Assembly (NCBI RefSeq): GCF_008000775.2
Contig: NZ_CP042905.2
Location: forward strand, 1,650,001 to 1,682,000
Length of the DNA: 32,000 nt
Direction of reading: 5' to 3'
From: Promethearchaeum syntrophicum
Lineage (GTDB): Archaea > Asgardarchaeota > Lokiarchaeia > Sigyniarchaeales > Promethearchaeaceae
Each line of letters starts with the position of its first letter. The stretch's first letter is position 1. A program made the position numbers and the translations under genes. Shown piece by piece: positions 20,764 to 30,797 of the stretch. Below the pieces are notes generated by a model, which was not told the origin of the DNA, did not search any database, and was given only the letters and a program-made list of their open reading frames with translations.

Positions 20764-23418
20764 ATGCTGAAAAATATCAATGGAGATTTAGCGGAATTAT
20801 TAAATTTTAAGGAAGAATATACATTCTTAGCTGGAGCGGGAGTTTCTATGGATTCTCCTTCAAATTTACCTTCAGCATTTGACATTTTAAAAAATTTAAT
20901 TTCAATTTATGGACCAGAAGAGGAATATAATAACCTAATTTCAATAAAAGATCTAAAATTCGAATCAATAATTGATCATATTAATCGTAGTTATGATGAA
21001 AATGTTGTATTTTTAGATTATTTTAATTTACAACATCACCCTAATTTTAATCATTTTTTTTTAGCTCGAGCAATTTTAAAGAATCACTATGTAATAACGA
21101 CCAATTTTGATTATATGATTGAATATGCTTTGTTAAATCTTCTTGAAGATAATAAAATCAGAAAAGAAATGATTAAAGTCATCATCACTCCATCAGATTA
21201 CAAAAATCTAAAATTACTAGAAAGTAATTTGAAAAACGAAAATTATTTTTTACTCAAAATTCATGGATCAAAACAAGATATTATTGGAAATAGAATTACT
21301 AAAGGGAGTCTAAAAGTTACAGAATCTCAGTTAGGAAAAGGATTGGAAAAAAAAGAGACTTTTGGTATTGAAAGTTTCAAAAAAGAAGTAATAAATAATA
21401 TGTTTGAAGGGAGAATACTTTTTATATTAGGATATTCTGCTAGCGATGATTTTGATATATCGCCTGTTCTTCAAGAAGCAAATAATCTCAAAGCTTTAAT
21501 TTGGATTGAACACTCTAGGGAGAACAAAATTGAAATCTTAAAAATTGTAGGTGAGCAGTATTTTAATGAGTTAAAGGTTAATTCAAATTCTTTAACACTT
21601 CTTCAAAATATGAGCAAAACACATAAATTTCCCATATATTATATTAAAACAAATACTGCTGATTTTTTATTCCAATATTTATCCAAAGATGTTCTTAACA
21701 CGTTCCCAGAGTATCTCAATGAGCACATCATACCATTTTCTAAAGAAATTCCAGAATATAATAATTGGTTACAGAATAATATAAATTTTAAAAATGTAAC
21801 AGATCACGAAAAATGGCTATTTGCATGGAAATTTTATTATATGAGCGGAGATCTCGAAAATCAGCAGCGATGTTTAAACAAAGCATACAATTTTGTCATT
21901 GAAACCACCGATGAAGAAAAAAAATCGACTATCTTAAACAATTTAGGGTATATTTACTATAAAAAAGGCAATTTTAATAAAGCCGTAGAATATTTCAAAA
22001 ATTCTATTAAAATAGATGAGAATTTGAATAAATTTGGAAAAACTGCAGCAGCTTATATTAATCTCGGAAACATATATTTAAAAAAACATCAATATAAAGA
22101 ATCGATTTTTAATTATAAAAAAATTATTGAATATTCAGCAAAAAGCAAAATCTCCTCAGAATATTTGTCTACAGCTTATAATAATATAGGATCTGCCTAC
22201 GACGCCCTAAATGAAAAAAAAAAGGCATCTGAATATTATGAAAAAGCCCTTAGTATTGATGAAAAACATGGAAATATTAGCAGTAAAGCAGCAATATTGA
22301 ATAATATTGGAGAATCCTATAGAGAAAAAGGAGATTTCCAAACTGCATTAAAATATTTTAATGATTCATTAAAGATCAGAGAATCTATGGGAACACAACA
22401 TGAAATGGCAACAGTTTTAAATAATATTGCTTATATTAAATCCTCTCTAGGAGAATATAAAGAAGCATTAGAGTTTTATACTAAAGCTCTAAGAATTGAT
22501 GAGAAATACAATGATATTGAAGGTAAATTATTGCGATTAAATAATATCGGAAGAACTTATATTAAAATGAAGGATTTTAATAAAGCAAATGATCATTTAT
22601 TAAAATCTTTAGCTTATTCTGAACAAATTAATAGAAAGGATTGGGTTTATAGTTATTATTTATCTTTAGGGGTGTCGTTTCAAGAAAAATGGCTTCAAAA
22701 TAAATTAGATCAACAATCTATCACAAAAGCTATTGAGTACAAGAAAAAAAGTTTAGAAATTGCTCGAATGATCAATGATATGAATGATATTGCTTTAAGT
22801 CTATCAGAATTAGGGAAAATTTATGAACTGTCGCATACTTATGAAGAAGCTTTATTAAATTATAAAGAATCGATTGAAATCTTTGAAAAACTTAATTCTA
22901 ATTATGATATTGCGATAGTCTCTAATCAGATGGGACAAATTTATTTAGCCCAAAACAACATTGATATGGCCATTCCTAAAATTCAAAGAGCCCTGAAATT
23001 GGATGAGAATCAAAGAAATCATATGTATTATTGTGATAATTTAGGGACTTGCTATTATAAAAAAAAAGATTTTAATAAATCCATAGAATATCATTCTAAG
23101 GCAGTTGAATTAACGAAACTGTATCACGATACTTACAAAGAAGCAGAATATTTATTGAATTTATCTAAAGCATATGGACATCTAAAAAATATAAACAAGG
23201 CAATAGAACTTATTAATCAAGCTAAATATTTAGATAAAAGCGATTTAATTCAAGCAAGAAGTAATCAATGGCTAGGAGCATATCTTAAAAATTTCAAAAA
23301 AGATTTTATTAATGCAAAAAAATACTATACCACTGCTTTGAACATATATACAAAATTGGATACCAAAGAATATGAAGATTTAATAAATTGGATAAAAAAG
23401 GAACTTAGTCAAATGTAA
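20764..23418 (+). CDS. SIR2-like (SIR2_2/ThsA-type NADase fold) N-terminal domain fused to a long TPR array
   Basis: 884 aa. The N-terminal ~250 aa carry FLAGAGVSMDSPSNLPSAF, TTNFDYMIE (Asn114), LKIHGS (His167) and LGYSASDDFDI, the pattern of SIR2-like domain proteins found in prokaryotic conflict systems. The C-terminal ~500 aa are repeated TPR units (LNNLGYIYYKKGNFNKAVEYFKNSIKIDE etc.). There is no P-loop. Confidence 0.8.
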   Translation: MLKNINGDLAELLNFKEEYTFLAGAGVSMDSPSNLPSAFDILKNLISIYGPEEEYNNLISIKDLKFESIIDHINRSYDENVVFLDYFNLQHHPNFNHFFLARAILKNHYVITTNFDYMIEYALLNLLEDNKIRKEMIKVIITPSDYKNLKLLESNLKNENYFLLKIHGSKQDIIGNRITKGSLKVTESQLGKGLEKKETFGIESFKKEVINNMFEGRILFILGYSASDDFDISPVLQEANNLKALIWIEHSRENKIEILKIVGEQYFNELKVNSNSLTLLQNMSKTHKFPIYYIKTNTADFLFQYLSKDVLNTFPEYLNEHIIPFSKEIPEYNNWLQNNINFKNVTDHEKWLFAWKFYYMSGDLENQQRCLNKAYNFVIETTDEEKKSTILNNLGYIYYKKGNFNKAVEYFKNSIKIDENLNKFGKTAAAYINLGNIYLKKHQYKESIFNYKKIIEYSAKSKISSEYLSTAYNNIGSAYDALNEKKKASEYYEKALSIDEKHGNISSKAAILNNIGESYREKGDFQTALKYFNDSLKIRESMGTQHEMATVLNNIAYIKSSLGEYKEALEFYTKALRIDEKYNDIEGKLLRLNNIGRTYIKMKDFNKANDHLLKSLAYSEQINRKDWVYSYYLSLGVSFQEKWLQNKLDQQSITKAIEYKKKSLEIARMINDMNDIALSLSELGKIYELSHTYEEALLNYKESIEIFEKLNSNYDIAIVSNQMGQIYLAQNNIDMAIPKIQRALKLDENQRNHMYYCDNLGTCYYKKKDFNKSIEYHSKAVELTKLYHDTYKEAEYLLNLSKAYGHLKNINKAIELINQAKYLDKSDLIQARSNQWLGAYLKNFKKDFINAKKYYTTALNIYTKLDTKEYEDLINWIKKELSQM

Positions 23419-23483: not shown

Positions 23484-24257
23484 TTATTTATAATAATTTT
23501 TTACAACAGGCTCTAATGCAGTAATTAAAGGAATCGCAATAAAAATTCCCGAAAGTACTTGCAAAATATTAAGAGGGATTTCAATTACAGCCGCATTTAA
23601 TGGATTAGAAAAATATCCGGGCGAGATTAAATTTAATATTAAAGACTCATAAAGGAAATACCCCAAAACCATAGCCATACCTCCTGCCATCATTGAGAGT
23701 ATCTTTACACTGATATTTTTTTGGACTGTAAGTCCCAAAATCCAGATGATAACTGCTAAGATTACTCCCAGTATGATAATTGGAAAGACGCCATCTGCAA
23801 AAATTGCCATTAATCCGCCTGCTACTACCCCAAGAATAATTGTAAAGATTCTCCAATTATTCTTTAAATTTTCATTAGACTGGAGATATTTAAACACTAA
23901 GCCTACAATAAATCCTTCTGCTCCCTTCGCAATAAAAGTTCCCGGGGCAAAAATTGCATAAGGTCCTAAAATATCGGCAAAAGCAGCTCCAACACCACCA
24001 ACAAATGCCCCGATATAAGGACCAAATAATACAGCTGTAAAATAGATTAAACCTTCACCGACATTGAAATATCCTGTTGTTGCGGGAATTGGAATAGATA
24101 CCGTAGTTGTTAATATGGTTTCTAAAGCAGTTAATATGCCCATAATAGCAATATTTAATATGACAGTGCGTCTTTTGTTATCTGGAACATCTCTTTCCAC
24201 CTTTAAAGCGATATTAGGTTGAACATTTTCAATTTCCATAATTTTCACCATATTCAA
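23484..24257 (-). CDS. Polytopic membrane protein, ECF-transporter S-component-like
   Basis: 257 aa with about 6 TM segments. ALETILTTTVSIPIPATTGYFNVGEGLIYFTAVLFGPYIGAFVGGVGAAFADILG resembles the substrate-binding S components of ECF transporters. No adjacent A/T components are seen. Confidence 0.55.
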   Translation of the reverse strand: MNMVKIMEIENVQPNIALKVERDVPDNKRRTVILNIAIMGILTALETILTTTVSIPIPATTGYFNVGEGLIYFTAVLFGPYIGAFVGGVGAAFADILGPYAIFAPGTFIAKGAEGFIVGLVFKYLQSNENLKNNWRIFTIILGVVAGGLMAIFADGVFPIIILGVILAVIIWILGLTVQKNISVKILSMMAGGMAMVLGYFLYESLILNLISPGYFSNPLNAAVIEIPLNILQVLSGIFIAIPLITALEPVVKNYYK

Positions 24258-24375
24258 AATGAAACTTTAGTATTCAAATATTCAAAAGGTAACTTTAATA
24301 TTAAAATTTTAGGGATTTTTTTTTGAGTTAGAGATTAATACTTTTATTATTAGTTAAAAATTAGTGGTGAAATAA

Positions 24376-25287
24376 ATGGCTAGAAAAATTTTTATTAAGA
24401 AAGAAACAGGAACCTTTTCTAGCGAAAAATTGGTTAGTTGGCTTGCAAAAACGGAAAAAAGAATATCTAATGTGCAATATGGAAAAGATTTTGAAAATTT
24501 AAAGCTTGTAATCATAAAATTACTTTCTAAAATTAAAAAAGAACCACATTTAGCTGGGTTTGAACCCCGGTTAGTTTTATTATTAAAAGATTGCAATTTA
24601 AATATTCAATTTATCAGACGTAACGATGATTGTTGGAGCTTAGTCAAAGAGGGCCGTTTTAATGAAGCTCTTGAAGAAATTATTCAGACTCTTAAAGATA
24701 TCAATTCCCATCCCGATAAAGATTTAATTCGGCCTGATATTAAGGGGATAATTGTAGATTCAGTAAAAAAAATTTCAGAACAGGTTGATTCTGAGGTAAA
24801 AATTCTACCACAACTTAATCTTCCAAAATCAAATATTAAAACCCTTAACCCTTTAAGTTCACCAAAATCTCCCTCTCAATCAATACAAACAACTGGCAAT
24901 ACTTTCAAGCCAGATATTGAAAAATTTCATCCTTTTGATATATCTGCTCCAATTGAAAATCCATTTAAATTTATAGATGATGAAAAAATACCTCAAAAGG
25001 TAAGAGATGTAAATTCTGAAACTTATTTTAAATCGAAACATTTAAACCACAAAGATAGTAAAATTGAACCTTATTTAGATCCTTTTCCGAAACCTAATCA
25101 ATCCCAGGATTTATCAAAAGATCAATTGAATTCTATTAGTGAATATTGGTTAAAAAAAGGGAAGAATAAAATAATGCAACATAAGAATTCCACTGATATT
25201 GTAACTCAAAAAATTGCTCAATCAAATCAAGATGATTTCAATTTAGAAAAGAAAAAAAAAACTAATAATCCATGGCCAGCTAAATGA
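24376..25287 (+). CDS. Hypothetical protein with low-complexity P/S/Q/K-rich C-terminal half
   Basis: 303 aa ORF with an ATG start and a TGA stop. No motif recognised. Confidence 0.4.
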   Translation: MARKIFIKKETGTFSSEKLVSWLAKTEKRISNVQYGKDFENLKLVIIKLLSKIKKEPHLAGFEPRLVLLLKDCNLNIQFIRRNDDCWSLVKEGRFNEALEEIIQTLKDINSHPDKDLIRPDIKGIIVDSVKKISEQVDSEVKILPQLNLPKSNIKTLNPLSSPKSPSQSIQTTGNTFKPDIEKFHPFDISAPIENPFKFIDDEKIPQKVRDVNSETYFKSKHLNHKDSKIEPYLDPFPKPNQSQDLSKDQLNSISEYWLKKGKNKIMQHKNSTDIVTQKIAQSNQDDFNLEKKKKTNNPWPAK

Positions 25288-25295
25288 GAAAATAA

Positions 25296-26651
25296 CTAAA
25301 TCTCTCTAAGATCGATAATTTCGCGCATTTTATTAAGGATATCAATCCCTTTATTTGTAATTATACACTTTTTTGTGTTGCCGACTTCTTGAAATTTAAT
25401 TAAACCATCTTGATTTAATGAGTCTAAATGGTGATAAATAGATTGAATTGTTTTCTTCTTACCTAAACTAGCCCAAATAGCATATCCATGAGTAGTATTT
25501 TTATTTTCCGCAATAATATTAAGAATTTCAAACCTTCGAGTGGAAGTTTCTGAAAGACCCCAAACGGTTTTCTTTAAATTTCTCATCCGGAATGCAAATT
25601 TGTTTAAAGCATTCAACCCAGAACCAGTTAAAATGGCAACAGTTTTTTGAGGATTAATGTCTTTTGGTGTTAAGTTTTTTGCTGCGGATATAACTGAAGC
25701 AGACGCGGGTTCAATAAACAATCCCTCCTTCATTGCTACTTCAGAAGCATCCTTTATCATATCTAAAGCATCTATTGAGATTTCTTTTCCATGAGTTTTT
25801 TTTATAATCTTTTTTATTTGATTTATTAGAGGAGGAGCTTTCATTTCTAATGATTCAGCAAAATGAGAACTTGACGAACTTTTCAAAGACACTGCAAAAA
25901 TTTTAGGAAATTTACTTATCCAACCTGATTCAATAGCGTCTTCAAAGCCTCGATAAATTGAAAGTAATAAGGTTCCAGATCCACGTGGAATGATAACATT
26001 ATCAATATCTTTTAATTGTAAAATTAATTCTAACCCTATTGTTTTTTGGCCTTCGATGGTAAGTAAATTATCATTTGGTATTGGAAAATACCCCTTTTTT
26101 TCTAAAGTATAGTTTTTGGCCGATTTTATGGCTTCATCTAAATTTTTATTCGTGTCGATAATTTTTGTTCCATACATCTTCAATTGTTCAATTTTCGAAA
26201 GATCTAAGTTTCCCGGAATAAAAGTAGTTGATTTTAGTGCTGCTTGGCTTGCATACGCCGCTAAGCTTATGCTAAATGATCCAGTGCTTGCTCCAATTAT
26301 TTCCTTACTTTTCTTTGATAATGCATCGGAAACTATCAGAGAACTGGCCCTATCTCGGAATGAACTAGTGGGATTTCTGAATTCTAACTTAATATTTACG
26401 TCTTTAATTTCAGGAATATTTCTAATTTGGATTATCGGTGTATTTCCCTCAACTAATGAAGCGATTTCTGAAAATTTTGGGAGAAATGGGTTTAATGACC
26501 ACATTGATTTTAAGTTAATTTTGCTTTTTTGTGGACCTTTTATGGGTTGGATTGAAATTAAGTTATTACAGTGAGGACACCATAAAAAAGGTTCATTAAA
26601 TTCTTGTCCACACTCATTACATGTTGGCTTTTTCACCCATTGTAATTCCAT
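25296..26651 (-). CDS. Threonine-synthase-like PLP-fold protein (PLP Lys replaced by Arg) with N-terminal zinc ribbon and C-terminal winged-helix domain
   Basis: CNECG...CPHCN zinc ribbon, then ThrC-family blocks: LVEGNTPI, EFRNPTSSFRDRAS (family consensus NPTgSFKDR; Arg codon CGA at 26355..26357), GASTGSFSISLAAYA, EGQKT. The C-terminal ~80 aa RRFEILNIIAENKNTTHGYAIWASLGKKKTIQSIYHHLDSLNQDGLIKFQE look like a PadR/ArsR-type wHTH. The start is set at the ATG at 26651 (the track's TTG is at 26678). Confidence 0.75.
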   Translation of the reverse strand: MELQWVKKPTCNECGQEFNEPFLWCPHCNNLISIQPIKGPQKSKINLKSMWSLNPFLPKFSEIASLVEGNTPIIQIRNIPEIKDVNIKLEFRNPTSSFRDRASSLIVSDALSKKSKEIIGASTGSFSISLAAYASQAALKSTTFIPGNLDLSKIEQLKMYGTKIIDTNKNLDEAIKSAKNYTLEKKGYFPIPNDNLLTIEGQKTIGLELILQLKDIDNVIIPRGSGTLLLSIYRGFEDAIESGWISKFPKIFAVSLKSSSSSHFAESLEMKAPPLINQIKKIIKKTHGKEISIDALDMIKDASEVAMKEGLFIEPASASVISAAKNLTPKDINPQKTVAILTGSGLNALNKFAFRMRNLKKTVWGLSETSTRRFEILNIIAENKNTTHGYAIWASLGKKKTIQSIYHHLDSLNQDGLIKFQEVGNTKKCIITNKGIDILNKMREIIDLREI

Positions 26652-26697
26652 TATAAATCCCTCCTCTATTATAATCAATGCTCTTGCATTATAAAAA

Positions 26698-27645
26698 TTA
26701 AGGCGTCATGAAAATTACGAATGCAATTCCAATTGTTATAAACACAACACCAATCAAAGATCTCCAACTAATTTTTTCATTATTAAAAATGTAATCAAGA
26801 GGGATCGCGATTAATGGCGCAGCTGTTGAAAAAAGTGACATAATGGTGGCTCCTGCTGTTCGAGCTGCTTCTGTATAAAGATAAGCTCCAAGACTAGTTC
26901 CAATTATTGACCCTATAAGTAACCATCCCCATGCTCTTTTGCTTTTTTTTACTGAAATTTTTCCATCTGAATGCTTTACCATTCCCATAAGAATTATAAA
27001 AGCAAACGGAAATCGAACAACATTGGCTAAAACTGAGCTTGTTTCTTGAACTCCAGTAATGATAGTTATTTCATTTACTGAATAATCAATAATAACTAAT
27101 CCTATTGCCCATGCTATAGAAGCAATAAAAGCTAACAATATAGCTCGCCATGATTTTTTATTTTGTTCATTTTCCGTATATTTATTAATTTCTAAATTAC
27201 TAGCAATATTTTTTGCATTTCTCACTCCACTATTAATGAGAATAACACCTATACTGATAAAAATGAAGGAAATAATAATTATATAATTAAATTCATCATC
27301 TAAAAAGATAATCGAAAGAATATATGTAAATAAAGGGAAAGTCAAGGCAATTGCTATTGTTTGAGTAACACCTAATTCTTTTTGGGCCATAAAATAAGCA
27401 GTATCGCCCACAACTTGTCCAAATATGAAGGATAATATCAACCATACCCATAATATTATTGGAAATTGAAAAATTAGCGGAAAAACTCCAGAAATTGCTG
27501 CAACAATCCAAAATGTTATGATACCGATAAAAGTACGAACAGCATTGATATAAGTAGGGGAAACCTCACCTTCGACCCTACGAAATATTATATTTGAACT
27601 CACAAACGTTAGAACAGCTAAAAAGGCTAATATCCATCCTTGCAT
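26698..27645 (-). CDS. DMT-superfamily (EamA-like) transporter
   Basis: 315 aa with about 10 TM segments in two similar halves separated by a polar loop (NAKNIASNLEINKYTENEQNKK), the architecture of EamA/RhaT-type permeases. It lies 19 nt upstream of the ThrC-like/wHTH gene on the same strand. Confidence 0.65.
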   Translation of the reverse strand: MQGWILAFLAVLTFVSSNIIFRRVEGEVSPTYINAVRTFIGIITFWIVAAISGVFPLIFQFPIILWVWLILSFIFGQVVGDTAYFMAQKELGVTQTIAIALTFPLFTYILSIIFLDDEFNYIIIISFIFISIGVILINSGVRNAKNIASNLEINKYTENEQNKKSWRAILLAFIASIAWAIGLVIIDYSVNEITIITGVQETSSVLANVVRFPFAFIILMGMVKHSDGKISVKKSKRAWGWLLIGSIIGTSLGAYLYTEAARTAGATIMSLFSTAAPLIAIPLDYIFNNEKISWRSLIGVVFITIGIAFVIFMTP

Positions 27646-27794: not shown

Positions 27795-28700
27795 ATGTCC
27801 TTGGATAAATTTACTACAAAAATCAAAGAAATAAATCGTGAGACGGCATTTATATTAGTTTTCGTTTCATATTACCTTGCAATTGTATCGGCTATTGGTC
27901 TTGGATATCTTCTTAGAGATCTAAATCCAATTTTAATGATATTTCTGGTTGATATTTTAGCCACTTTGATAATTTTTATAATTAGTACAGTTTTTAGAAA
28001 CGCTAGTTTTTATGATCCTTTTTGGAGTTTTATCCCAATTGTAATTGCTCTTTATTTATTGTTTACTTCCTCTGATTTAGTTAATACTGTTCGTCAATAT
28101 ATTGTGGTGTTGATGGTCTGTCTTTGGGGTTTACGATTAACATGGAACTGGGTTCGTCAGTGGAGAGGTATAAATCATGAAGATTGGAGATATGTGAATT
28201 TCAGGAAAAAGTATGTTAAATCTTTTTGGTTTATAAATTTAACGGGTATTCAACTTATGCCGACAATTCTTGTGTTTTTTGGATGTTTGTCTCTATTTCC
28301 AGCTTTAAATTCAGGAACAAACAATTTTCAATTTCTTGATTATATTGCTTTAATTATTACATTGGGAGCAATAATTCTAGAAACATTTGCCGATTTTCAA
28401 ATGAAAAATTTCATGAAAACCAGAAAAGATCCGCAATTGATTATGGATAAGGGATTGTGGGGTAAATCGCGGCATCCGAATTATTTAGGTGAGATGTTAT
28501 TTTGGTGGGGGTTGTATTTATTCGGTGTAAGTGCCGATCCTCAATATTGGTGGGTGATATTTGGACCAATCGCGATTACAATATTATTCCTATTTATAAG
28601 TATCCCTATGATGGAAAAACGCCAAGAACACAAATCTGAATATAAAAACTATAAATTACGAGTTCGAAAATTGATTCCAAGATTTTCTTTTTCTTCTTGA
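27795..28700 (+). CDS. DUF1295 / steroid 5-alpha-reductase-like membrane protein
   Basis: 301 aa, polytopic. GLWGKSRHPNYLGEMLFWWGLYL matches the sRHPNYfGE signature shared by the DUF1295, steroid-reductase and ICMT-like membrane enzyme families. Confidence 0.75.
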   Translation: MSLDKFTTKIKEINRETAFILVFVSYYLAIVSAIGLGYLLRDLNPILMIFLVDILATLIIFIISTVFRNASFYDPFWSFIPIVIALYLLFTSSDLVNTVRQYIVVLMVCLWGLRLTWNWVRQWRGINHEDWRYVNFRKKYVKSFWFINLTGIQLMPTILVFFGCLSLFPALNSGTNNFQFLDYIALIITLGAIILETFADFQMKNFMKTRKDPQLIMDKGLWGKSRHPNYLGEMLFWWGLYLFGVSADPQYWWVIFGPIAITILFLFISIPMMEKRQEHKSEYKNYKLRVRKLIPRFSFSS

Positions 28701-28844: not shown

Positions 28845-29318
28845 ATGTCAGAAAACACTCGCGCCTCTTTAGTAAAGAAAAAAATGGGCTTCAATCAAAT
28901 GAGGAATACCATTTATTGGTTACAAAGAGTAATGAAGCAATATGATCTACCAGAAAGCCAAATCGAAAAGAGATTATTAAGTATGGGAAGAAATATTGGT
29001 GCGAGTTTTTCTAAGGAATATATTCCAAATTCAAAAGATCCAAGTGATTTGATTAAGGAACTTTACAAAATTACCCTTAGAAGTAAAGTGAAAACTGAGC
29101 AAGATTTTGATTTCTTAACAGTCACTGATAATAATAGTGCATTATGCAAGTATCAGTATAAAGATATCCAGACTCCCGGATGTAATGTGGTTATTGGGAT
29201 GATTAGTGAAATATTAGAGCGAAATGGGATTAAAGTAAAAGAAATGGAAATAAATGCTTGTAAATCTCATGGAGATCCTTACTGTAAACATTCATATAAG
29301 GTAGTTAGGAGTGAATAA
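28845..29318 (+). CDS. V4R-domain protein (TRAPP/Bet3-fold related)
   Basis: 157 aa. The C-terminal half ALCKYQYKDIQTPGCNVVIGMISEILERNGIKVKEMEINACKSHGDPYCKHSYKV fits the V4R pattern C...G...G.l......v.v.E..C...Gd..C. Confidence 0.7.
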   Translation: MSENTRASLVKKKMGFNQMRNTIYWLQRVMKQYDLPESQIEKRLLSMGRNIGASFSKEYIPNSKDPSDLIKELYKITLRSKVKTEQDFDFLTVTDNNSALCKYQYKDIQTPGCNVVIGMISEILERNGIKVKEMEINACKSHGDPYCKHSYKVVRSE

Positions 29319-29324
29319 AACCAA

Positions 29325-30797
29325 ATGAGCAGTACTTTTAAATGGTTAGTCTTTAAAGCAGCTTCAGCTGTTGCTCGCAATACTTCTTCATTATTTTATC
29401 AATTAATATATCGTGAAATTTATCGTGAAATACTCCTTTTAACTGACGATTATAGTAAAACTATGGAAATCGCTTATTTTATTGGGTATAAAGCAGCTAA
29501 AGAGAGTGCCTTAAGACAAATTCCTGTTTTTCGTTTATTTCCTTCAGATGCTACAAAATTATTAGATTATTTTCCATTAATCTGGCAGATAAATTTTGGA
29601 GTGTCCTTAACTGAATATACCAGAGAATGGGATTATTCTGATCCTAATAAACCCGTACATTATTACATTATAAAAGATAATCCGTTAAATTATGGAATGG
29701 GACCCGAATCGCCAAGAGATCCTGATAGGGATAATTTAATTTGGAGCGAATTAACAGACGGAACTAATAATTATGGGGCAATTATGGTAGGACTTCTAAC
29801 ATCCGTCATAAGTTTCATACTAAAAATTAAAAATTCTGATAAAAGAATAATAATTACAAATCCTGAGAGTATAATTCAAGGAGGAAATGCGTATACTCTA
29901 AAATTTGCAATAATTCCAAAGGAAGAATTTCCATTTCCAGAAGAAGAGGATCACACATCTGATGGATTATTTGATAACATTGATCTCGGAATTGAAATGG
30001 GCGAAAAAGAGAAAAAAACCGATTTTTGGAAAAAAATTACTGATTATATAAATATTGAACAATTGGATGATATTTTTAGTAGCGATACAGGACTCTTGCG
30101 TACCATTTTAAGCAAGGGAATCGAAAAAGCAACCCATATGCCTGCTCTTGATTTTATGGATCATTTTACAAATGATGAAGAAAAAGTAATTCAGATCATA
30201 GGTTATATCGGAGTTCATCTTGTGAACGAATATGGCCAATTTCTTGATAAATTAATGGAAAAAGAAAATACATCAAAGGTAATCGGCCATATGTTCTTAT
30301 TTATTAAAGAAAATATCGAAAAATTTGTCCCCGTTTCAACAATTGGAGAAATTAAAAATTACTTTGCTGAAGTATTTGAAGAAATGGCTCCTGCGGTTTT
30401 TGTGGAAAATTTACGTAATATTCCATCAGAAGATGTTGTGCAATTAATACTTCAAGGTATGCAAAAAGCTTTAATTGATATTGGAGTAGATTTCTCTGCC
30501 TTAAAGGAATCTATTAAAGATGAGTTTAAAAAATCCGAAGAAGAGAAAATTGATAAAGCTTTAGTTGAATCTGCCTCTGAAAAAGAGAGAAAAGAACAAA
30601 AAAATCAATTAATGGAGGAATTTTTAAAGGAATTTATGATTGTTTCAACAGCTTTAATTACTCTTCCTTCCCAAATAGCTATAGTTGTGCTCTATAATAC
30701 TATTTCTGGGTCATCTGAAATATTTTCAAATCTTTTTAATAGTCTAAAGGATAGTATTCAAAAAATTGTGGATCTTTTCGAAGAACTAAAAGAATAA
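29325..30797 (+). CDS. Hypothetical protein; the N-terminal ~200 aa possibly have a V4R/TRAPP(Bet3)-like fold, followed by an acidic coiled-coil-rich extension
   Basis: 490 aa, starting 6 nt after the V4R gene. By eye, YYIIKDNPLNYGMG and NYGAIMVGLLTSVISFILKIKNSDKRIIITNPESIIQGGNAYTLKFAI resemble the 'f.l..eNPL' and 'y.n.l.G.l.g.l......v........G....i.f' blocks of Bet3-family TRAPP subunits. The C-terminal half is E/K-rich, with one hydrophobic stretch FMIVSTALITLPSQIAIVVLY. Confidence 0.5.
   Translation: MSSTFKWLVFKAASAVARNTSSLFYQLIYREIYREILLLTDDYSKTMEIAYFIGYKAAKESALRQIPVFRLFPSDATKLLDYFPLIWQINFGVSLTEYTREWDYSDPNKPVHYYIIKDNPLNYGMGPESPRDPDRDNLIWSELTDGTNNYGAIMVGLLTSVISFILKIKNSDKRIIITNPESIIQGGNAYTLKFAIIPKEEFPFPEEEDHTSDGLFDNIDLGIEMGEKEKKTDFWKKITDYINIEQLDDIFSSDTGLLRTILSKGIEKATHMPALDFMDHFTNDEEKVIQIIGYIGVHLVNEYGQFLDKLMEKENTSKVIGHMFLFIKENIEKFVPVSTIGEIKNYFAEVFEEMAPAVFVENLRNIPSEDVVQLILQGMQKALIDIGVDFSALKESIKDEFKKSEEEKIDKALVESASEKERKEQKNQLMEEFLKEFMIVSTALITLPSQIAIVVLYNTISGSSEIFSNLFNSLKDSIQKIVDLFEELKE

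Follow-up and report, generated by a model that had tools for sequence, protein, structure and literature searches.

A gene on the reverse strand of a 32,000-nucleotide stretch of the Promethearchaeum syntrophicum genome (NZ_CP042905.2, positions 1,650,001 to 1,682,000; the whole stretch is called the window here, and positions are numbered within it) encodes a threonine synthase (ThrC)-like domain, of the fold type II of pyridoxal 5′-phosphate (PLP) enzymes, fused to a C-terminal PadR-like winged helix-turn-helix (wHTH). The Schiff-base lysine of the enzyme fold has been lost, the genes of the family are associated with pdxS-pdxT or with energy-coupling factor (ECF) S-components of PF07155, and the promoters of these targets carry a conserved palindrome. 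The protein is likely to be a PLP- or vitamin B6-sensing, probably repressing, one-component regulator of B6 homeostasis, an archaeal analogue of PdxR. It is also favored, if somewhat less firmly, that the family, found in Asgard archaea, Thermoproteota, Bathyarchaeia, Nitrososphaerota and Methanomethylicia, is the missing B6 regulator of Archaea: a lysine-less, non-covalent fold-type-II sensor whose PadR-like wHTH acts on palindromes of pdxST and of PdxU-type importer genes, and an independent invention of the PdxR solution.

Vitamin B6 was taken as the signal because the putative sensor is a PLP fold and the alternative targets of the family encode either PLP synthase or a PF07155 S-component. 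PdxU and PdxU2/HmpT belong to PF07155 (PMC9997740). The bacterial PdxR regulon comprises pdxST, pdxK and pdxU, and Archaea are reported to lack MocR regulators (PMC5320631).

Domain architecture and loss of the Schiff-base lysine

The open reading frame (ORF) enclosing the gene spans 25296..26678 with its stop codon (reverse strand). The probable start is the ATG at 26651, which is preceded by GAGGAGG 5-11 nt upstream and agrees with the N termini of orthologs, 7-10 residues ahead of the first CxxC. ThrC was the best match in both sequence and structure over residues 45-352, and the top Foldseek matches of the enzyme-like part were the ThrC structures 6nmx, 2zsj and 3aey (template modeling [TM] score by target 0.78-0.80, E ~1e-20). 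Among 124 fused homologs, conservation of the zinc-ribbon cysteines (C11, C14, C25 and C28) is 90% or higher, and the predicted local distance difference test (pLDDT) of the AlphaFold model exceeds 90 there. This model, generated from 124 homologs (pLDDT 91.6, predicted TM score 0.82), resolved residues 368-449 as a separate helix-helix-helix-strand-strand-helix unit. Folded alone (pLDDT 83), the unit resembled AF1382, PadR, AspA, RosR and MarR-type structures (TM 0.72-0.81), and it has the winged-helix fold with a C-terminal helix by which the PadR type is recognized. Pfam bounded the PALP domain at residues 65-343 and the winged-helix matches at residues 376-449. The latter, to HTH_45 and PadR, were weak (E ~2e-3); PadR PF03551 scored 18.2 bits in the window protein, below its gathering threshold of 27 bits, and a precomputed PF03551 match is present in many relatives. 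No GntR or Aminotran_1_2 match was found in the protein by the domain search, and the layout is thus not that of MocR.

A homodimer model gave an ipSAE (interaction prediction score from aligned errors) of 0.85, against 0.12 for the best of three controls, a pass that may reflect memory of, or likeness to, known structures because ThrC dimers have already been solved. Of 30 proteins whose solved structures are pairs of one chain, 20 attained the ipSAE mark, as did 1 of 23 whose structures are single chains. At least 56% of the contacts were common to three runs, with a partner pLDDT of at least 83. The modeled interface is ThrC-like and lies in the PALP domain (residues 49-161 and 303-353).

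HMMER alignment placed the segment NPTSSFRDRA of the protein opposite NPTGSFKDRG of the Bacillus subtilis (6cgq) and Mycobacterium tuberculosis (2d1f) threonine synthases. Arginine, encoded by CGA, two changes from AAA or AAG, thus occupies the position of the PLP Schiff-base lysine. In ThrC, the Asn of the STGN loop and an Arg before EGQKT hold the carboxylate and phosphate of the substrate. Both are replaced in the window protein: Asn125 has become Ser (ASTGS), and the Arg ahead of EGQKT in 6cgq (NPYRLEGQKT) aligns with Leu/Thr. At column 125, all 70 canonical proteins have Asn; in the Arg clade of the window protein the residue is Ser in 59 and Asn in 19 of 79 members. E68, K88, N93, P94, D100, R101, G124, E208 and G226 are invariant in the 124 fused homologs, and these retain the Gly-rich phosphate loop (G224, G226) as well as the T342-G343-x-G345 motif. 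Such a pattern would fit a pocket that continues to bind something after catalysis has gone.

Consistent with these replacements, the thrC model TIGR00260 scored 100.2 bits against a cut-off of 167.1, and every other ThrC equivalog model was likewise below its cut-off. The best NCBIfam model was NF004170/PRK05638 ‘threonine synthase’, which scored 264.8 bits against a cut-off of 421 and was reached at cut-off by none of 10 fused relatives tested. Its 442-position profile aligned at positions 4-440, the wHTH part included. By every defining feature tested, the fold excepted, the protein is not a threonine synthase.

The original prediction had described a ThrC-like fold with an N-terminal zinc ribbon, a Schiff-base lysine changed to arginine by two substitutions (CGA), a GN-to-GS change next to ASTG and a C-terminal PadR-like wHTH. 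These features were borne out by the PALP and ThrC structure matches, the conserved cysteines, the alignment to bona fide ThrC, where Arg and not Lys occupies the PLP column, and the modeled fold with its PadR, RosR and MarR-type matches. The arginine was correctly recognized, although its number was given as 108, a count from the upstream TTG 26678; counted from ATG 26651 it is Arg99. The fusion and the lysine loss also recur in orthologs: all of about 90 Asgard homologs (45-89% identity; Promethearchaeota, Heimdallarchaeota and Thorarchaeota by their NCBI names) have Arg at this position.

Wider relatives were collected by an exhaustive search of 1.84 billion representatives. Lysine is present in 70 of 70 aligned unfused relatives, which have no C-terminal extension, and is absent from nearly all extended ones, which carry R (79), I (18), L (9), or else T, M, V, F, H, S or A. 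Just five fused relatives keep it (P0094, P0095, P0098, P0130 and P0143). The loss is thus far beyond chance, with Arg in 79 of 79 members of the Arg clade and Lys in all 70 unfused relatives. The lysine-less fused clade is spread over TACK and Asgard archaea. When 201 sampled Asgard genomes were searched with a profile of just the wHTH, the matches listed included fused frames of ~450-520 aa in at least 102 of the genomes.

In a FastTree analysis of the PALP columns with the lysine column removed, a quick tree whose root was not inferred, the extended proteins were separated from the rest by a single branch (1 change, support 88) and the lysine versus non-lysine character required 3 changes. 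The fusion therefore probably came first, and the lysine was probably lost later and more than once. Fused relatives that keep the lysine occur in the same B6-gene context (L044, L069, L074 and L076), and for this reason the loss is not what made the family regulatory; its likely effects were to render ligand binding reversible and to abolish residual chemistry.

The NF004170 ‘equivalog’, named threonine synthase, spans the wHTH of the fused family, and several JGI and NCBI records give lysine-less proteins this name. The labeling looks like a systematic annotation problem.

Association with vitamin B6 genes and a conserved palindrome

One gene downstream of the regulator in the window lies an S-component gene whose product belongs to PF07155/COG4720 (117 bits, cut-off 26.7). 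Its start is ambiguous (TTG 24257, ATG 24251 or ATG 24239). The sole clear PDB match of the protein was chain S of 4hzu (E 4.6e-9, 39 bits), which we take to be the Lactobacillus brevis HmpT/PdxU2 complex. Target genes of the same two kinds lie beside distant relatives. In a Baldr locus with Leu at the lysine position (L046), pdxS and pdxT follow the regulator by 44 bp; in a Njord locus of the Thr type (L045), the regulator is divergent from an operon of a PF07155 ECF S-component, two ABC ATPases and CbiQ; and in a locus of the Ile type (L043), S-component and ABC genes begin 58 bp downstream. A PF07155 S-component lies one or two genes downstream in the lysine-keeping Loki type (L044) and in the clade of the window protein.

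The association was quantified in two samples. Six-frame ORFs of 61 Asgard genomes, comprising 60 fetched loci (L047-L106) and the window, were scanned with home-made hidden Markov models of the S-component, PdxS and PdxT. In 44 of the 61, the regulator has a PF07155-like S-component or pdxS/pdxT within ~2.5 kb, mostly less than 110 bp away, and these 44 genomes span 11 of 15 family codes. The second sample comprised 80 loci from GTDB genomes matched to the lysine-less motif NPTG[ST]F[IL]DR, named as Thermoproteales, Thermoprotei, Desulfurococcales, Pyrodictiaceae, Bathyarchaeia, Nitrososphaerales, Nitrosopumilales and Methanomethylicia, and also as Thor-, Baldr-, Borr-, Njord- and Sifarchaea. 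In these I/L-type loci an S-component was adjacent in 56 and pdxS-pdxT in 7 (63/80), mostly in divergent orientation.

The target promoters share the palindrome ATATTMAAGTT-NN-AACTTKAATAT, or, more loosely, ATAT(T/A)(C/A)AAGTT-NN-AACTT(G/T)(A/T)ATAT. It occurs upstream of S-component genes, and also of pdxS in L090 and L052, often as two tandem copies. When promoters were scored against ATATTMAAGTTNNAACTTKAATAT within 200 bp upstream, at least 16 of 22 positions matched in 36 of 43 target promoters, compared with 4 of 48 regulator promoters and 9% of shuffled target promoters; at 18 or more of 22, the values were 22/43, 1/48 and 0.2%, respectively. Two of the four matches in regulator promoters are explained by an intergenic region shared with a divergent target (L052) and by a regulator-pdxST operon (L071). 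Of 35 sites, 34 have G9 and 32 have C16, both letters that are rare in this A+T-rich DNA. The sites cluster 30-90 bp before the start codon, and in Heimdall-type loci the operator lies directly downstream of a TATA-like box. Autoregulation was considered and rejected: the window region upstream of the regulator matched at 12/22, and regulator promoters, apart from the shared-region and operon cases, generally carry no site.

A scan of the 4.32-Mb genome of the organism gave three matches of at least 19/22, compared with none in a Markov-1 simulation. Two of the three are the adjacent sites in the 118-bp region upstream of the S-component gene (Table 1). The third (G000 412917), within the 3′-terminal part of a convergent gene, was dismissed as probably due to chance. 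In regulator-bearing genomes (G006, G017, G056, G076, G082, G196, G038 and G041), related and often tandem palindromes (15-17/20) were found at -60 to -158 in the promoters of pdxS genes that are not adjacent to the regulator. Where no fused gene was found in a genome, its pdxS promoter scored 12-14/20 at best, at scattered positions.

The recognition-helix motif xxQ(S/A)(I/V)YQHL is conserved across clades, alongside the operator core AAGTT/AACTT. Variants with Ala for Gln accompany TAAGTT half-sites, and the YHHL of the window clade accompanies AAAGTT. This correspondence, drawn from aligned sequences and from few independent events, is suggestive of helix variants that track half-site variants.

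No PF01680/PdxS match was found by profile search in the genome, a single contig of 4,324,194 bp with an estimated completeness of 92.65%. Having no PLP synthase, the organism is therefore probably dependent on uptake of B6, and its genome encodes ECF T components. Among 201 sampled Asgard genomes, just 32 had PdxS; for those of high quality the count was 10 of 85. The gene content suggests that the organism is a vitamin B6 auxotroph and is unable to make threonine by the usual route.

In the proposed mechanism, the ThrC-derived domain would no longer be catalytic but would retain its cofactor pocket, in which PLP or a closely related B6 vitamer is probably bound reversibly and non-covalently. 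The protein would probably dimerize through the enzyme-like domain, as ThrC does, and present two PadR-like winged helices to the 2-fold symmetric operator. When B6 is plentiful, the liganded regulator would most likely sit on the operators over the TATA/start region and block transcription of the importer; when B6 runs short, it would dissociate from them. The family may control pdxS-pdxT in other archaea, either in place of the importer or besides it.

Several observations weigh against regulation by B6 as proposed. The S-component of the window was below the cut-off of every named NCBIfam S-component family, and its substrate is thus inferred; moreover, the PF07155 name also carries riboflavin transporters. 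No S-component or pdxST neighbor was found within the fetched DNA in 17 of the 61 Asgard loci and 17 of the 80 TACK/Asgard loci. The consensus was derived from a subset of the promoters later counted, mainly from genomes other than that of the window; the independent parts of the operator evidence are the scan of the organism's own genome and the non-adjacent pdxS promoters. The right arms of the two window sites are degenerate (CTTTT and ATTTT, not AACTT). A pyridoxal-kinase-family match in the genome was weak (29.9 bits), which leaves the salvage step unconfirmed. Without the lysine, PLP affinity could be low, or the true ligand could be another vitamer or a PLP-amino-acid adduct. Finally, the predicted repression is read only from the position of the sites.

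Table 1. Features of the window discussed in the text
Feature	Position	Strand	Remarks
ThrC-like/wHTH regulator, coding sequence	25299..26651	-	451 aa (P0001); stop codon 25296..25298
N-terminal CxxC...CxxC zinc ribbon, residues 11-28	26568..26621	-	C11, C14, C25 and C28 conserved
Fold-type-II ThrC-like domain (putative sensor), residues 65-343	25623..26459	-	Pfam PALP, E 8e-50
CGA codon, Arg99 at the PLP Schiff-base Lys position	26355..26357	-	HMMER alignment to ThrC
C-terminal PadR-like wHTH, residues 368-449	25305..25550	-	Pfam, AlphaFold and structure matches
Predicted recognition helix, residues 402-414, motif TIQSIYHHL	25410..25448	-	Within the PadR-like wHTH
Predicted target, ECF S-component of PF07155 (PdxU, PdxU2/HmpT family)	23487..24257	-	Pfam E 1.1e-33
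Predicted operator site 1	24278..24301		19/22 match to ATATTMAAGTTNNAACTTKAATAT; overlaps the TATA-like A/T box of the S-component promoter
Predicted operator site 2	24250..24273		19/22; 28 bp from site 1; overlaps the possible start codons TTG 24257 and ATG 24251

The 118-bp region with the two operator sites is shared with a divergent ORF of 303 aa (24376..25287, forward strand) that has no Pfam match and could be co-regulated with the S-component. An ORF of 279-306 aa, with no confident Pfam match, occupies the interval between the regulator and the S-component in L041 and L042; in L016 such an ORF immediately follows the regulator. Elsewhere in the genome, a second PF07155 S-component gene (G000 2660506..2660946) lies ~2 kb from a CbiQ-type T component; the two (region 2660506..2663742) likely form a dedicated ECF module. 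No operator match of at least 18/22 was found near this second gene.

Alternative explanations

The original prediction had called the protein a candidate ligand-sensing transcription factor, with the neighboring gene at 26698..27645, here recognized as EamA (26701..27645, reverse strand), as its implied target and amino acids or threonine-pathway compounds as its implied ligands. The protein, a pseudoenzyme joined to a wHTH, is indeed most likely such a factor; the target and the ligands were not supported. Control of an EamA exporter by an amino-acid sensor (of O-phosphohomoserine, threonine, homoserine, cysteine or O-acetylserine) is now very improbable. Bacterial transporters of the EamA family include exporters of threonine, homoserine, cysteine and O-acetylserine, and the EamA gene lies 46 bp upstream of the regulator on the same strand, a pairing kept in the close relatives L041 and L042. 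However, EamA and the DUF1295 gene beside it are not at that position in L016 (Lokiarchaeum ossiferum) or in the metagenome-assembled genomes L019 (Loki) and L017 (Heimdall), none of the four remoter loci with Pfam annotation (L043-L046) has EamA annotated beside the regulator, and the EamA promoter of the window, at 14/22 at best, carries no operator. The residues with which ThrC binds its substrate have been replaced. Profile searches of the genome found a homoserine dehydrogenase but no ThrC, ThrB or archaeal-type Asd above cut-off; with ThrB and Asd not found, O-phosphohomoserine is an unlikely signal. The missing pathway steps, which would feed a ThrC, also argue against a protein that is still an enzyme, PLP-dependent or PLP-independent, without a Schiff-base lysine and with a wHTH for autoregulation or another role. 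Much of the active-site shell is conserved, the five fused relatives named above keep the lysine, and the archaeal RbkR is both enzyme and regulator (PMC8305020). The lysine column is nevertheless free among R, I, L, T, M, V, F, H, S and A, which is uncharacteristic of a catalytic residue, the carboxylate-loop Asn is lost in most of the window clade, and the upstream region of the regulator has no operator of its own; continued catalysis is accordingly given hardly any weight.

Rather improbable, too, is a role as PLP carrier, storage or homeostasis protein, with the palindrome read by a different transcription factor. Protein and operator are linked by co-occurrence only, as this explanation would have it, but the PadR-like wHTH is well folded and highly conserved, with a conserved recognition helix; the palindrome marks the pdxS promoters of genomes that carry the fused gene and is not seen in those in which the gene was not found; and divergent regulator-target pairs are the dominant arrangement. 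The mildest departure from the proposal, unlikely although less so than those above, retains the regulator and its regulon and changes the effector, to pyridoxal, pyridoxamine 5′-phosphate, pyridoxine 5′-phosphate or a PLP-amino-acid external aldimine, or changes the sign of regulation to activation. A different effector would accord with the lysine loss, which precludes an internal aldimine, and with Arg99, an invariant residue of the Asgard clade that could form a pair with a phosphate or carboxylate. Activation has a parallel in bacterial PdxR, an activator of pdxST according to the title of a work cited in PMC9997740, but sites over the TATA/start region favor repression. A B6-sensing repressor is thus retained as the preferred explanation.

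Other candidates were rejected. A bona fide ThrC elsewhere in the genome was sought, and the best match of TIGR00260 was the regulator gene itself (98 bits). The EamA gene was set aside as a target for its adjacency, confined to close kin, and its promoter. It forms a divergent pair with the DUF1295 membrane protein gene (27795..28697, forward strand); these two genes separate the regulator from the V4R pair in the Promethearchaeum-like clade alone (L041 and L042 too) and thus represent an insertion specific to this lineage in a block that is otherwise syntenic. The V4R pair consists of a V4R-like gene of 157 aa (28845..29315) and a gene of 490 aa and no known family (29325..30794), both on the forward strand, and is kept beside the regulator in Lokiarchaeia (L016, L019, L041 and L042). 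It was likewise rejected as a target (28845..30797), its upstream region matching at 13/22 without an operator. The pair is divergent from the regulator in L016 and L019, but its synteny is limited to Lokiarchaeia, and it was therefore treated as inherited gene order.

Two further observations concern the surroundings of the gene. Heimdall-type orthologs are preceded by a conserved ORF of ~66 aa (P0307; L017:5747-5947, forward strand, and the same position in L020-L035) that ends ~50 bp upstream of the regulator and carries the motif ...FEDPLSFQLEE...C.CDIEVDK.EEP...; it had no counterpart in the genome of the window (E 0.8). The forward strand of the window also encodes, at 20764..23415, a protein of 884 aa that combines a SIR2_2 domain at its N terminus with a long array of tetratricopeptide repeats.

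Significance and relation to known systems

If the proposal is correct, the family fills a gap in archaeal B6 regulation across several phyla, and its putative sensor offers a case from nature of a PLP fold at work without the lysine. A widespread annotation error would also be corrected, in which ‘threonine synthase’ labels inflate predicted threonine prototrophy; the genome of the window has no credible ThrC, ThrB or Asd. A likely substrate, vitamin B6, would be assigned to an uncharacterized branch of ECF S-components. The findings support B6 auxotrophy with uptake as a common trait of the Asgard phylum, in which such auxotrophy may be common, with a bearing on syntrophic lifestyle and on the design of cultivation media. 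The operator and the ligand prediction are directly testable.

In the literature searched, which included a paper on archaeal protein fusions, no description was found of a ThrC-like wHTH regulator or of an archaeal B6 regulator, in agreement with the original prediction, which knew of no described fold-type-II ThrC-like sensor with a C-terminal wHTH. The fused architecture has already been modeled in NF004170, under an enzyme name, although proteins without the lysine cannot act as a conventional threonine synthase. With ThrC itself (TIGR00260; 6cgq, 1v7c, 2zsj), the window protein has most fold-type-II motifs in common; it differs in its extra wHTH and in a context of B6 genes, not of threonine-pathway genes.

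A fold-type-II PLP enzyme and a winged-helix repressor also meet in transcription control in CymR-CysK of Bacillus subtilis, in which CysK is active and senses O-acetylserine. CymR-CysK, however, consists of two proteins, one of them an active enzyme, whereas the window protein joins both functions in one polypeptide that appears catalytically dead and is predicted to serve a B6 regulon. Among archaeal regulators, ThiR derives from ThiN. The same logic, the fold of a vitamin or cofactor enzyme joined to a DNA-binding domain over genes of synthesis and uptake, is followed in Archaea by RbkR (riboflavin kinase and HTH; PMC8305020) and by ThiR (thiamine; PMC12029414). RbkR, however, remains an active enzyme and the window protein has lost catalysis, and the folds and vitamins differ from those of RbkR and ThiR.

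The closest functional parallel is PdxR, of the MocR subfamily of GntR regulators (PMC5320631, PMC10450172). As is proposed for the window protein, PdxR is a one-component regulator with a sensor domain derived from a PLP enzyme, a winged helix, and repeated boxes upstream of B6 genes. The content of its regulon is the same as that predicted here by comparative genomics alone, namely pdxS-pdxT and a PdxU-type ECF S-component. The two are nevertheless built on unrelated scaffolds, fold type II and ThrC-like in the window protein and fold type I and aminotransferase-like in PdxR. The wHTH is PadR-like and C-terminal in the former and GntR-type and N-terminal in the latter, and the window protein, unlike PdxR, has lost the Schiff-base lysine and carries an N-terminal zinc ribbon.

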